Program-made: the position numbers and the translations under genes
Notes under the pieces: generated by a model
What the model saw: the letters and a program-made list of their open reading frames with translations, nothing else
Database searches by the model: none
Told to the model about the DNA's origin: nothing
From: a virus
Length of the DNA: 64,000 bases
Reading direction: 5' to 3' (one strand)
Virus record (IMG/VR): IMGVR_UViG_3300021371_000009
Coordinates: 10,443 to 74,442 of that record
In this document: piece by piece, positions 55,543 to 62,370 of the stretch
Numbering within the stretch: the stretch's first letter is position 1
Layout of the letters: each line of letters starts with the position of its first letter

Positions 55543-55772
55543 TGATACACGCTTTCATGTTGATGGTTGTTATCGGAACAGGAGAGTTTAGACAAGTTCA
55601 ACCAGACCCTATGTATTTTAGAAGCATATCCACTTGTCTTTGGTATGCAAAAAGAATCCCACAACAGTTTGGTAATTACTCATACGGTGCTTATGTGGAC
55701 CCTAAAGATAGGGTTACTGCTTACTGTAAACCTGTCAAAATTCAAGACGGTGTACATATCTACGACCATTAA
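55542..55772 (+). CDS. Hypothetical protein
   Basis: 76 aa; hydrophobic N-terminus, two Cys; start overlaps the upstream stop (TAATG). Confidence 0.6.
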   Translation: MIHAFMLMVVIGTGEFRQVQPDPMYFRSISTCLWYAKRIPQQFGNYSYGAYVDPKDRVTAYCKPVKIQDGVHIYDH

Positions 55773-56215
55773 TTCATTTTGATATAATAATATGCAAACC
55801 CAATGCCAACGATAGAACCTATGATTAGCACTCCCGCGATTGCCATTTCAAAATATTCATACATCTTTTGTTCTCGCTGTGCCTTTATTCGCAATGCTTC
55901 TTTCTTTTGTTCTTCTCTTCTTCGTGCCGCTTCTGCTTGAAACTTGATCCAATCTTGCCACATACCAGCGCGTCCCGTATAAATCATAAGTTCGCGCAAC
56001 TCATCTTCTTGTGCCTTAATTTGTTCAAGTGCCATAAATTCTTCAAGGTCCGACTTATCAGACTTTGAACTCTTATTTACTTCAATCTGTAATTTACTTT
56101 TGGCGTCAAAATAATTTAGAAGTCCCTCACCCATCTGATGAAGTTCTCTACCTTCTTGGACAAATTCTTTGACGGTTTTAAATGCCGCTGTGGCAATTGC
56201 TAATTCTGCAAGCAT
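55769..56215 (-). CDS. Hypothetical coiled-coil protein with C-terminal TM helix
   Basis: 148 aa; GAGG SD; late promoter at 56294-56301. Confidence 0.7.
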   Translation of the reverse strand: MLAELAIATAAFKTVKEFVQEGRELHQMGEGLLNYFDAKSKLQIEVNKSSKSDKSDLEEFMALEQIKAQEDELRELMIYTGRAGMWQDWIKFQAEAARRREEQKKEALRIKAQREQKMYEYFEMAIAGVLIIGSIVGIGFAYYYIKMN

Positions 56216-56301
56216 ATTGATTCCTCATTTGCTAAAAAAGAAGAATATAAATCAATTGTTGCTATTTAATGATATGTGTCACTCTCTCAATAATATTTAT
56301 A

Positions 56302-58059: not shown

Positions 58060-58652
58060 CTGTAAGGTTTGCCGCATATCCATCCTACTAAACTATATCT
58101 CTTACCTTTTGTGACTGGTCGAACTCTATGATAAGTAAATGATGGAAAAACAATTGCTTCTCCTGTCTTTACTTGACACAATTCAGTTCTATTCTCTTCA
58201 TGTGGTAGTCCTAATTCAAATTCAAACTCACCACCTTCATAATCATGATTGAGTAGCACAGAGAAACTAATCTTTCTTATCTTACCTTGTAGATACTTGT
58301 CAGCATCAGTATACGGCACACTTCTCTGGTCGGCGTGCCAATTATAATGTTGTTCAGGACCATACGTTGTAAATTGTAAATCTTCGATTGCATCATAATC
58401 AAAGTTCCAATTGTTATTTGCATTCTCCAGATATATCATTTTAAGTAAAGGTTTGTAAATGAATTCAGTATCAGGATTTCTTTTGAACCAAGATATAGAA
58501 CTATTTCGATGTCCTTGTATTGCCGCTTCAGTTCCATCTATCTTAGCATCTTCTAAATTCAATTCGCCCATCTGAATAATTTTATCAACTTCAGGCAAAG
58601 TAAAAACAGGTTTTGTGGTTGAATAACAATATTTTAAAATCATATCATACAC
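58056..58652 (-). CDS. 2OG-Fe(II) oxygenase (PKHD / prolyl-hydroxylase type)
   Basis: Y.WHAD, RKIS.S.LL...YEGG.F, G..IVFPS..YHRV.PVT.G.RYSLV.W. Confidence 0.92.
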   Translation of the reverse strand: MYDMILKYCYSTTKPVFTLPEVDKIIQMGELNLEDAKIDGTEAAIQGHRNSSISWFKRNPDTEFIYKPLLKMIYLENANNNWNFDYDAIEDLQFTTYGPEQHYNWHADQRSVPYTDADKYLQGKIRKISFSVLLNHDYEGGEFEFELGLPHEENRTELCQVKTGEAIVFPSFTYHRVRPVTKGKRYSLVGWICGKPYR

Positions 58653-59208
58653 TTTCTATAGAATGCATATCTGTAAATGCTCTTGTCATATTAAATGCTA
58701 TTGTAACCCTTTCATTATCTTTATCATGTCTAGGCATTGCATGATATAACCATCCGTTAAATATAATACACTTACCTTTTTCTGCATATACAATTTCAGC
58801 ATTCTCGTTGTATATTTGAATTCTAGGATCAAAGAATTCAGTTTTACCTATGTTGTCGTAGTATAACACGGCAGACATCATCATTCTATCTCCATGACGA
58901 TGAATATCATGAGTACATCCCGCGGGAACGTAATTCACCCAAGAGTTACTAATAACATACTTATTTTTCGTATGTCTTGATATTGTAGAACAAATATTAT
59001 CTAAAATAGAATTTGTGATTGGTCCAACATCCAGACTAGGAGGATTATTAAAACTACTGAAATAATCTTTCACATAAGAAGTAATTCCAGAATTTCTAAA
59101 CATATCCAATTCATGCCTAGATAAGTCTATAATTTCTTCATCAAACTGTATCTCGTAAAATACTGTAGGAAAAGCATTATATTCGGTTAAGGTTAAACCT
59201 TCAATCAT
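58645..59208 (-). CDS. Putative 2OG-Fe(II) oxygenase (TIGR02466-like)
   Basis: FPT, SWVN, H..H.H, SAV.Y, F.DPR, G..I.F..WL.H, R.TIAFN. Confidence 0.85.
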   Translation of the reverse strand: MIEGLTLTEYNAFPTVFYEIQFDEEIIDLSRHELDMFRNSGITSYVKDYFSSFNNPPSLDVGPITNSILDNICSTISRHTKNKYVISNSWVNYVPAGCTHDIHRHGDRMMMSAVLYYDNIGKTEFFDPRIQIYNENAEIVYAEKGKCIIFNGWLYHAMPRHDKDNERVTIAFNMTRAFTDMHSIESV

Positions 59209-59789: not shown

Positions 59790-60268
59790 AGCAATTGCTT
59801 CTTCTGTTTCCAGGCGTCCCCACAACACCCAGAAGATTATGCCGCTAGGCGAACATCTTCATATGCAATGTTATCGTTTGCATTTATGTTTTTGAATTCT
59901 CTTCATGCCTTCTTAATGCAGTCGAACCTATTTCGCCCCCATCATAAACACACTATTCTTCAAACCAAAGAAGGAAATCAAAACTTCCTGTAATTTGATA
60001 TAATACAAACATTAGAATACAAAACCAAATAAACCAGAATAAGTAAAAACCTAAGGTTCGATATATCTTTTCCATTGGAAGGTATTTTTCAAATAATGTT
60101 TGGATATCCCATACATATTTAAATTGTATAAACCAACAGAACCATCTTACATATTTGTTTGGCGTATTTTCTTTTGTTATCTTAGTCATATTTCCTTAGT
60201 GTGTTTATGGTGGAGGCGGTGGGTACTGCCCCCACGTCCTACAATCCTCCAACATGTGTCATCAAATT
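59790..60268 (-). ncRNA. ssrA: Circularly permuted (two-piece) tmRNA, alphaproteobacterial type; outer ends approximate
   Basis: Acceptor piece ...GGACGTGGG-GGCAGTA-CCCACCGCCTCCACCA ends at 60208; coding piece starts GGGGGCGAAATAGGTTCGAC at 59940; G3.U70 pair; tag ANDNIAYEDVRLAA* at 59881-59837. Confidence 0.93.
59953..60189 (-). CDS. Aromatic-rich small membrane protein encoded inside the tmRNA intervening segment
   Basis: 78 aa; AAGGA SD a few nt before ATG; TM segment LGFYLFWFIWFCILMFVLYQI. Confidence 0.7.
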   Translation of the reverse strand: MTKITKENTPNKYVRWFCWFIQFKYVWDIQTLFEKYLPMEKIYRTLGFYLFWFIWFCILMFVLYQITGSFDFLLWFEE

Positions 60269-60274
60269 CAATTC

Positions 60275-60305
60275 TATTTATACTACATTCAAGCAACTTT
60301 GTCAA
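60275..60305 (-). promoter_or_regulatory. Superimposed sigma70 and late promoter for the tmRNA
   Basis: TTGACA (60305-60300), 17 nt, TATAAATA (60282-60275). Confidence 0.75.
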
Positions 60306-61353
60306 GAACATATGGGTCGATATCTAGATATTTACCCCATTCAGTATAGTAGTGTCTCATACCTACTTCATCATGTATAGTTCCATTCTCATGTCTTCCA
60401 TGTAGAATGTTTCTTGTTTCTGTACCTTCACGCATTGTTGTACCTTGACCTGCTACACCAATAAGGTCTTCGTGCAAGTTTCTACCGAAAGGTCCCCATA
60501 TACTATTGTGATGCTTGATACGAGTTTGTCTTTCTTCTGGTGTATCTTTTCTTAATCCATATCCACGAAACTCAATCAATACTTTATTCGGACCAAGTGG
60601 TGTTACTGTGTCTGAACGATATGCACTCCCACGGAGGTTAAAGTTGAATCCTGGAAAGAGGTCGACCATGTACCACTGGTTGGGCGGCAGATTGGGAAAA
60701 GATAAATCCCCTCTATCTTCAAATCCGTCATACTCTTCGTAATTAACAGTAAAACTACTAACATTAACATGACCGTTATCAAAAGGAATATTTTTTCTAG
60801 CGAAATATTCATCATTGAATCCTGACACTCTATTAAAGTAATGCATGAAGTCGTGATAGAATTCACTGTTTGTGTCATGCCACAGTTTGTAGTTTGTATC
60901 TATCACTGCTTTGTGATAGTGAAAGACTTCCATTTCTTCTGTGTCGATTGCGTCTGCGATACAATCAAATGCGCCTGCAGTCCATTCTTCTACTGACTGT
61001 GTAGGGTTAGGGTCAAGCGTTACCCACACCATACCCCCATGCTTGATTTCACAATGCAATGGCACACCAGATGGTAAGTGTCCAATGTTACCAGAGAGTT
61101 TATTTACTCCACTGTCTCTTGTTGCTTTTACACCACTTCCAGTATTTACTGCAAGTACATTTACTCCAGCAATCTGTGTGGTTCTATAATCACCAACATT
61201 ATACATCTCTGAGATGTGACACATCGGTACCCAGACTTTACTGAATATTAATTCCTGTTCTTGTTTATATATTTCGTAGTTATTATATGCTCTACTACTA
61301 ATTGCTTCTATTCGTGGTGCTGATGACCACTGCTTATGATTACGAGGTGGCAT
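60289..61353 (-). CDS. msmA: Ring-hydroxylating oxygenase alpha subunit, methanesulfonate monooxygenase MsmA-like, lacking the Rieske motif
   Basis: IF.KVW...CH.SE....GD, NYKLWHDTNSEFYHDFMH Fe site, NLHEDL; no CxH or CxxH anywhere; MsmA assignment is from recall, not a search. Confidence 0.78.
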   Translation of the reverse strand: MPPRNHKQWSSAPRIEAISSRAYNNYEIYKQEQELIFSKVWVPMCHISEMYNVGDYRTTQIAGVNVLAVNTGSGVKATRDSGVNKLSGNIGHLPSGVPLHCEIKHGGMVWVTLDPNPTQSVEEWTAGAFDCIADAIDTEEMEVFHYHKAVIDTNYKLWHDTNSEFYHDFMHYFNRVSGFNDEYFARKNIPFDNGHVNVSSFTVNYEEYDGFEDRGDLSFPNLPPNQWYMVDLFPGFNFNLRGSAYRSDTVTPLGPNKVLIEFRGYGLRKDTPEERQTRIKHHNSIWGPFGRNLHEDLIGVAGQGTTMREGTETRNILHGRHENGTIHDEVGMRHYYTEWGKYLDIDPYVLDKVA

Positions 61354-61416
61354 ACTAGTCTCCTTTCTGCCATATCAAATATTTATTTCTCAAGCAATAT
61401 TTTTTGTTACTATCAC

Positions 61417-61818: not shown

Positions 61819-62370
61819 TCACCGTATGAGCATATTAAAAGGCATCGTAATTCTAAACTCATCTTCATAATGAGCAGGCATATCATGTTCTAACCAACCG
61901 GGAAAGAAAACTACTTTACCTTTTTCAGCAACTTCGACATGAGGTTGCCAATTGAATACTTGAGGTCTTGGATCATAAAAATTTGTTTGCCCAATAGTAT
62001 CAAAGTAAACAATAGCACATATCATGTTATCTCGACCATGACTATGCTTTGAATGCACATTACCTTTCGGCACATAGTTAAAAAAACTATTTTCTATATG
62101 CACTCTATCTTCTGCTATAATTCTAGCAATTCGTAAAACATTATCGCTAATTAATTTAGTAGAAGACCCTATATCATCGACCTTTTCTAAACCAGTATTA
62201 TATGTGGTAAAGTATTGTCGTATACCACTTTTATTATTTTTAGCATACTCTACTAACTCTTCTTTACAATCATCAGCGAGTGATGTTGGTAAGAAATATT
62301 TATATAAGTTTGAAGGAAACAGTTGAATGGTATCAATATCCATGAGCATCTCTCCACGCATCTCTAACAC
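61819..62370 (-). CDS. Putative 2OG-Fe(II) oxygenase (TIGR02466-like); paralog of 58645..59208
   Basis: NYVPKGNVHSKHSHG, AIVY.D.IG.T.FYDPRPQ, AEKGK...F.GWL.H.MP, R.T..FNM. Confidence 0.85.
   Translation of the reverse strand: MLEMRGEMLMDIDTIQLFPSNLYKYFLPTSLADDCKEELVEYAKNNKSGIRQYFTTYNTGLEKVDDIGSSTKLISDNVLRIARIIAEDRVHIENSFFNYVPKGNVHSKHSHGRDNMICAIVYFDTIGQTNFYDPRPQVFNWQPHVEVAEKGKVVFFPGWLEHDMPAHYEDEFRITMPFNMLIR

Follow-up and report, generated by a model that had tools for sequence, protein, structure and literature searches.

A phage gene for a methanesulfonate monooxygenase-like alpha subunit (MsmA-like) without a Rieske cluster probably contributes the catalytic half to a split host Rieske oxygenase of the methanesulfonate-monooxygenase type. 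The gene, whose product we call aC, lies in a window of 64,000 nucleotides, the whole stretch of DNA that we analyzed, which comes from a 74-kb IMG/VR viral fragment with an estimated completeness of 41%. The grounds for this reading are the anatomy of the sequence, complementary losses in aC and in a host paralog that we call aR, the synteny of the host locus, the co-occurrence of the two genes, the signs of purifying selection, and a structure model whose geometry is as expected. On a wider form of the proposal, which we hold to be evenly balanced between true and false, the oxygenase of SAR116 bacteria is obligately heteromeric, made of two half-degenerate MsmA paralogs, and many unrelated marine phage lineages have captured its catalytic half and plug it into the electron-delivery half of the host.

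The aC gene occupies 60289-61353 on the minus strand (ATG start, stop codon at 60289-60291) as an intact open reading frame of 354 aa; the plus-strand translation of the same interval is riddled with stops. A ribosome-binding site, AAGGAG, stands 6 nt 5′ of the ATG (61360-61365, minus strand). As a weak lead, AATAAATA (61380-61387, minus strand) is a late-promoter candidate, one mismatch away from TATAAATA, which we take to be the T4-type late-promoter box. PF00848 is the sole Pfam domain of the protein (residues 139-343, 31.9 bits against a cut-off of 24.9); PF00355 was not detected by Pfam, and aC has no canonical Rieske [2Fe-2S] site. Residues 1-74 (61132-61353, minus strand) are what remains of the N-terminal Rieske-fold strands, without cluster ligands: in NCBIfam and PDB sequence searches, the match to the first Rieske-domain strands of other alpha subunits covers residues 18-78 and breaks off there. 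Residues 75-98 (61060-61131, minus strand) are a linker that, in alignments, takes the place of the CPH-X26-CMFH cluster-binding loops of canonical MsmA, compared to which aC is net ~55 residues shorter and has lost all four cluster ligands. The cysteines, found only at positions 45, 101 and 131, are in neither a CxH nor a CxxH context, and the CxH...CxxH motif is absent from the 354-aa protein.

The catalytic domain, residues 99-354 (60292-61059, minus strand), is marked by PF00848 and by ~70-73% identity to the catalytic domain of canonical MsmA. It contains E164-x2-H167-x3-H171 (60841-60864, minus strand), a candidate bridging carboxylate and two putative iron histidines, and D296 (60466-60468, minus strand), the candidate carboxylate ligand of the mononuclear iron. 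All four residues are invariant in 31 of 31 aligned aC and MsmA sequences, and, if the roles assigned from the family alignment are right, aC would retain a 2-His-1-carboxylate iron site together with its bridging carboxylate. A surface segment at residues 298-328 (60370-60462, minus strand) has many invariant columns, aligns with no counterpart in aR, and is predicted from the complex model to be the dock for the Rieske loops of aR. In a single-chain AlphaFold model of aC (pTM 0.82, mean pLDDT 78), residues 1-74 were modelled as beta strands (pLDDT 86-95), and Foldseek against the PDB matched the fold best to Rieske oxygenase alpha subunits. The protein thus has an alpha-subunit fold with the catalytic domain PF00848. 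The best fold matches were terephthalate dioxygenase (TPADO; 7q05, 7vju), salicylate 5-hydroxylase (NagGH; 7c8z) and CntA (6y8j), with Foldseek E values of 1e-15 to 5e-19 and TM scores of ~0.7; their alpha subunits are 13-18% identical to aC and, unlike it, each binds its own Rieske cluster.

An earlier note, written from the letters of this stretch, had described an intact frame of 354 aa, the three cysteines, E164, H167, H171 and D296, the missing CxH...CxxH motif, and a short linker at about residues 75-98 in place of the cluster-binding part. These readings hold: the frame is on the minus strand, and alignment to canonical MsmA maps the loss of ~55 residues. The note had also called the protein MsmA-like, and its best Rieske-bearing homologs are indeed MsmA proteins of Hyphomicrobiaceae and Filomicrobium.

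Two length classes of homolog are found in bacteria when one genome per species is considered. The short form (~362 aa, 72-83% identity to phage aC) occurs in single-cell and metagenome genomes of SAR116/Puniceispirillum, on contigs that in some cases reach 200-600 kb. The long form (~415 aa, 53-57% identity) comes from Hyphomicrobiaceae, Filomicrobium and Hansschlegelia, among others; it bears CPH-X26-CMFH, has msmB, msmC and a BenC-type msmD after it, and is canonical MsmA. The closest cluster-bearing homologs of aC are therefore MsmA proteins from msmABCD operons, and the identity of phage aC to those of Hyphomicrobiaceae and Filomicrobium, 53-57% overall, rises to ~70-73% over the catalytic domain. 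A homolog in a cultured phage is gp61 of Puniceispirillum phage HMO-2011 (YP_008320323.1), which is 72% identical to the window protein across 98% of its length. The aC gene is present on more than 600 IMG/VR contigs, and a metagenome protein collection contains more than 1200 near-length homologs; among 50%-identity representatives, the matches were mostly fragments. The phage backgrounds that carry the gene include a T4-like lineage, a second myovirus group and HMO-type podoviruses, with others untyped.

Every short-form copy that we inspected was a full-length open frame (80 of 80 viral and 22 of 22 genomic). Pairwise dN/dS among the phage copies was 0.088 overall, with 0.042 in the catalytic domain, 0.16 in the N-terminal remnant and 0.45 in the linker, the least constrained part of the gene; among SAR116 copies it was 0.028. 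Phage aC is under purifying selection and, being intact and carried in a phage genome, is an auxiliary metabolic gene of the msmA type. The possibility, named in the earlier note, that the deletion might be an assembly error or unique to this contig is ruled out by its presence in HMO-2011, in those >600 IMG/VR contigs and in bacterial genomes; nor do the homologs evolve neutrally, as the note had allowed they might, given dN/dS of 0.088 in phages and 0.028 in SAR116.

When canonical MsmA was used to root the tree, the proteins without a cluster formed a monophyletic sister clade to it, of 104 rows (SH-aLRT 100). Within it, 85 of the 87 rows that are phage-borne or context-less make up one clade (support 98), beside which the SAR116 chromosomal copies branch. 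The window copy belongs to this main phage clade, in a T4-like subclade of 10 rows (support 97), whereas HMO-2011 gp61 has a long branch of its own; gp61 and the copy on a metagenome-assembled genome (MAG) contig, L022, lie on long branches nearer the root, below the SAR116 copies. Short forms without msm neighbours were also seen on five contigs, L003, L004, L016, L022 and L023, from bins assigned to Endobugula, Verrucomicrobiales, Hellea, Rickettsiales and Legionellales. Four of the five fall within the phage clade, and L003 carries HMO-2011-like terminase and lysozyme genes; all five look like phage contigs binned to bacterial MAGs.

The cluster-less form is not confined to phages, a point that the earlier note had proposed to check: in SAR116 bacteria, aC is chromosomal and lies, with conserved synteny, inside an msm locus. 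The locus starts with a divergent msmEFGH-like ABC importer, followed by aR, a reductase-fused paralog of ~800 aa, a beta subunit (PF00866) and a 133-aa Rieske ferredoxin. From the ferredoxin it continues with a 274-aa protein of no known family, aC, a LysR regulator gene and a TauE sulfite exporter, and ends with a PanB-like hydroxymethyltransferase, a formate-tetrahydrofolate ligase (FTHFS), two FolD and a second TauE. The protein between the ferredoxin and aC (~270 aa, for example at L009:8921-9745) has no Pfam or NCBIfam match, and homologs with 27-36% identity sit just 3′ of msmD in many canonical msm loci (e.g. L059:13303-14100). A remnant of MsmD was considered for this protein and ruled out, because the canonical loci hold both a BenC-type MsmD and its homolog; the protein, still uncharacterised, accompanies msm loci.

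The domains of aR run in the order Rieske, Pyr_redox_2, Reductase_C, and its C-terminal part is a ferredoxin reductase of the FAD/NAD(P)H kind. The first ~210 residues form a near-perfect Rieske domain of the MsmA type, in which CPH-X26-CMFH does not vary across 11 genomes, and the alpha-subunit scaffold continues beyond it. In 11 of 11 aR sequences, WHDTNSEFYHDFMHY is either missing or degenerate, and a deletion removes HEDLIGVAGQG, the segment that holds D296; E-x2-H-x3-H is lost from aR. A three-way alignment including these 11 aR sequences shows the reverse in every aC, where the cluster loops are gone and the iron motifs are kept. In this alignment, aC and aR are complementary, each without exactly what the other retains.

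Our survey of co-occurrence covered 192 genomes of the SAR116 order (Puniceispirillales), in which 14 had both genes, out of 16 with either. One further genome had aR only, in a frame of 513 aa against the usual ~800, and one had aC only plus a 136-aa fragment; both hits look fragmentary. Canonical MsmA by itself was present in one genome, and the rest had neither aR nor aC. In three genomes where aR was not directly upstream of aC it was encoded elsewhere, twice on the same contig. In G002 (C5:71188-72156), the aR match is confined to a 341-aa frame and may not be reductase-fused there; two aR/aC pairs on separate contigs of G001 (C16 and C45) may represent two strains in one bin.

We modelled the complex of phage aC with residues 1-400 of aR, including a 2Fe-2S cluster and Fe. 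The complex scored 0.87, against 0.00 for the best of 3 controls. In calibration, 58 of the 80 solved complexes reached this mark, as did 2 of the 110 mismatched pairs; our runs, unlike the calibration, used their own alignments and ligands. Contact agreement between runs was at least 49%, and the partner pLDDT was at least 85. In the model, the two ligand loops of aR (residues 89-97 and 121-124) are in contact with residues 160-170 and 298-328 of aC, and aR H123, of the CxxH motif, contacts aC Y166 and H167; the confident aR:aC interface runs one way only. Rieske oxygenases such as naphthalene dioxygenase have a head-to-tail geometry in which a Rieske histidine, a bridging aspartate and an iron histidine adjoin, and the predicted aR:aC interface corresponds to this known geometry of the family. 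As Rieske oxygenase trimers have already been solved, the high score may reflect likeness to them and not binding.

The neighbours of aC in the viral record are T4-like, including a gp32-like ssDNA-binding protein, PhoH and baseplate genes, so the source virus is a T4-like myovirus fragment and not an HMO-type podovirus. We found no aR, beta subunit, ferredoxin, reductase or Rieske-bearing paralog in the 74-kb record (est. 41% complete), which extends to the whole record the earlier note's remark that no beta subunit, ferredoxin or reductase lies nearby. Nor was any aR, beta subunit, ferredoxin or reductase present within 6 kb on each side of 80 viral aC loci. Since aR accompanies aC in 14 SAR116 genomes and was found neither in this record nor in those loci, the phage would depend on the aR of its host.

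Directly 3′ of aC, Rfam models detected a permuted two-piece tmRNA of the alphaproteobacterial type at 59793-60309 of the window, on the minus strand (RF04321, 69.6 bits, gathering 47; RF01849, 58.3 bits, gathering 50). ARAGORN reported no tRNA or tmRNA in the window and missed this permuted form. The tag at the end of the coding piece reads roughly ANDNIAYEDVRLAA, and a spacer of ~250 nt that contains a 78-aa ORF (59953-60189) separates the coding piece from the acceptor piece. In RNA-library contigs from three studies, the stretch 59952-60205 (~250 nt, spacer and 78-aa ORF) is swapped for 18-40 other letters, and close relatives therefore lack the insert. The same 78-aa ORF adjoins the oxygenase gene in two further phage backgrounds (L118 and L140, 80-83% identity), and 40 nt of the tmRNA acceptor arm (60200-60239) recur in many otherwise dissimilar contigs. 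Near-identical contig pieces from the RNA-library runs of the three studies cover parts of aC and its neighbours, as assembled contigs that are no measure of transcription, strand or level; the sample labels of these libraries include 'marsh' and 'freshwater'.

Two paralogous ORFs, at 58645-59208 (187 aa) and 61819-62370 (183 aa), both on the minus strand and ~34% identical by cross-hits, bracket aC and the tmRNA. Homologs of HMO-2011 gp62 (53% identity; 55548-55733, plus strand) and gp60 (27%; 55781-56221, minus strand) are also present. In HMO-2011 these two genes flank msmA; in the window they stand side by side, and we rejected them as functional partners of aC because they lie 4-5 kb away from it. 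The sequence of phage aC groups with copies from SAR116 and from SAR116 phages. Together, the tmRNA, this grouping and the HMO-2011 homologs point to SAR116 or a related alphaproteobacterium as the probable host.

Adjoining alpha subunits of a Rieske oxygenase work together, the cluster of one passing electrons to the iron of the other. Given this arrangement, contact between aR and aC would restore one working electron path. We infer that the two proteins assemble, and envisage that an ancestral MsmA gave rise in the hosts to two complementary paralogs, aC of ~362 aa and aR of ~800 aa. NAD(P)H would donate electrons to the FAD of aR, from which they would move on to the small Rieske ferredoxin, to the Rieske cluster of aR, and then via E164 to the iron of aC, which would activate O2 and split methanesulfonate into formaldehyde and sulfite. 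GR-type reductases usually reduce Rieske ferredoxins, as in biphenyl dioxygenase systems, which would explain the presence in one locus of a free ferredoxin alongside the fused reductase. Methanesulfonate is the likely substrate to judge from the ~70% identity of the catalytic domain to that of MsmA and from the content of the locus, where an importer, two TauE and C1-tetrahydrofolate enzymes make sulfite and formaldehyde fit as products. During infection, phage aC would join the host's aR, beta subunit and ferredoxin and sustain or raise sulfonate oxidation to sulfite, C1 units and reducing power. The phage may benefit from the sulfite, from C1 units for nucleotide synthesis via the linked tetrahydrofolate genes, from the reducing power, or from having a subunit replaced that is prone to damage; the supply of aC would resemble that of the damage-prone PsbA by cyanophages.

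The earlier note had proposed three mechanisms, and the borrowing of clusters from host MsmA is the best fit among them, with the amendment that the likely donor is a dedicated aR and not ordinary MsmA. It had also read the clean in-frame loss as a sign of selection and not of decay. Purifying selection agrees with that; yet the loss is not phage-specific, and because aC is chromosomal in SAR116 it cannot be credited to phage-specific selection or to the saving of iron. Counting against the split enzyme are the drift of the phage linker, which has lost the vestigial cysteine of host aC, and the long-branch position of HMO-2011 and L022. Stoichiometry is its main difficulty, because a cyclic alpha-3 ring cannot alternate two types of subunit, which leaves at most one productive interface per trimer.

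If aC worked independently of aR, then the MsmC-like 133-aa Rieske ferredoxin might dock where the loops are deleted and reduce the iron of aC directly, leaving aR as a separate reductase or in some other role. Between the aR and aC genes, the SAR116 locus has a conserved Rieske ferredoxin, and the kept candidate bridging carboxylate, E164, could serve any Rieske donor. We nonetheless consider this unlikely, as it does not explain why aR should keep a near-invariant MsmA-type Rieske domain and scaffold minus exactly the iron ligands, nor the tight co-occurrence of the two genes; moreover, the cluster loops of aR sit on the aC iron site in the complex model. It is likewise improbable that the substrate of the split enzyme is not methanesulfonate but, for example, a different small sulfonate or some methylated compound, with the phage gene serving a different pathway. 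In the literature that we searched, there was no demonstration of SAR116 growth on methanesulfonate, and all proven methanesulfonate degraders carry an intact long-spacer MsmA (PMC4433239); on the other side, the catalytic domain is ~70-73% identical to that of the Filomicrobium and Hyphomicrobiaceae enzymes, and the msmEFGH-like importer, two TauE and C1-tetrahydrofolate enzymes fit the products of methanesulfonate.

A subunit without the cofactor that normal alpha subunits need, encoded without partners, could also be suited to poisoning or retuning the host oxygenase, and the earlier note had raised a dominant-negative role. We regard a dominant-negative or regulatory function as very improbable, because the same form without a cluster, at ~80% identity, is encoded by the host itself, and because the iron ligands and active-site motifs are invariant in a catalytic domain with dN/dS of 0.042, none of which a poison subunit would need. 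The missing motif is the one feature that would suit a decaying remnant or an assembly artefact, to which we assign a vanishingly small probability: all 80 viral and 22 genomic short-form copies are full-length and open, >600 viral contigs and a cultured isolate phage carry the gene, dN/dS is 0.09, and RNA libraries from three studies contain pieces nearly identical to it. Assembly error and pseudogene are refuted by the open frames, the spread, the isolate and the dN/dS.

Parts of this picture have been described before. The Rieske motif was found to be absent from many MsmA proteins predicted in GOS and virome data, HMO-2011 included (Henriques and De Marco, 2015; PMC4433239), and in IMCC1322, the host of that phage, only one of two proteins annotated as MsmA has it (PMC4433239). 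The same paper treats a long-spacer motif, CXH-X26-CXXH, as the signature of MsmA (PMC4433239); alignment shows this motif to be deleted in phage aC. Viral msmA has been listed as a marine auxiliary metabolic gene with dN/dS <1 (2021 preprint, 10.1101/2021.01.05.425418). In the literature searched, we found no paper on the function of the cluster-less subunit or on a second host paralog as its complement. The new part of our work thus appears to be the explanation and not the object, because the gene, its missing motif and purifying selection on it are already published.

Among known systems, gp61 of HMO-2011, annotated as 'methanesulfonate monooxygenase', resembles phage aC in belonging to the Rieske-less clade and in standing alone, without msmBCD neighbours. 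HMO-2011 is a cultured phage that infects SAR116, and is a podovirus whereas the virus of the window is T4-like. The aC of SAR116 (Ca. Puniceispirillum), 77-83% identical to phage aC, has the deletion and iron ligands of the latter, but it sits with aR, a beta subunit and a ferredoxin, in contrast to the phage copy with no nearby partners, and it keeps a vestigial 'CP' of the CPH motif where the phage linker has no cysteine. Canonical MsmA shares the catalytic motifs WHDTNSEFYHDFMHY and HEDLIGV with phage aC in identical form, but has CPH-X26-CMFH and, after it, msmB, msmC and a BenC-type msmD, none of which accompanies phage aC. A precedent for metal centres split over two gene products is the chlorophyllide a oxygenase of Micromonas, in which, from the work of Kunugi and colleagues, the Rieske site reportedly lies on one chain and the iron site on its partner. 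We know of no virus with one half of that enzyme, which is eukaryotic, belongs to an unrelated substrate family and has no reductase fusion. Its occurrence on two polypeptide chains in Micromonas pusilla is described in PMC9615114 (citing Kunugi et al., 2013).

In marine viromes, viral msmA is included among the auxiliary genes of the sulfur cycle, and its cluster-less subunit looked non-functional or was left unexplained. If the division between aR and aC is true, then there would be a concrete electron path for one of the most widespread oxygenase genes of surface-ocean phages. Surveys of MsmA based on the Rieske motif would miss the catalytic subunits of both SAR116 and its phages, and a bacterial homo-oligomeric Rieske oxygenase would have turned into a two-gene enzyme with a division of labour.
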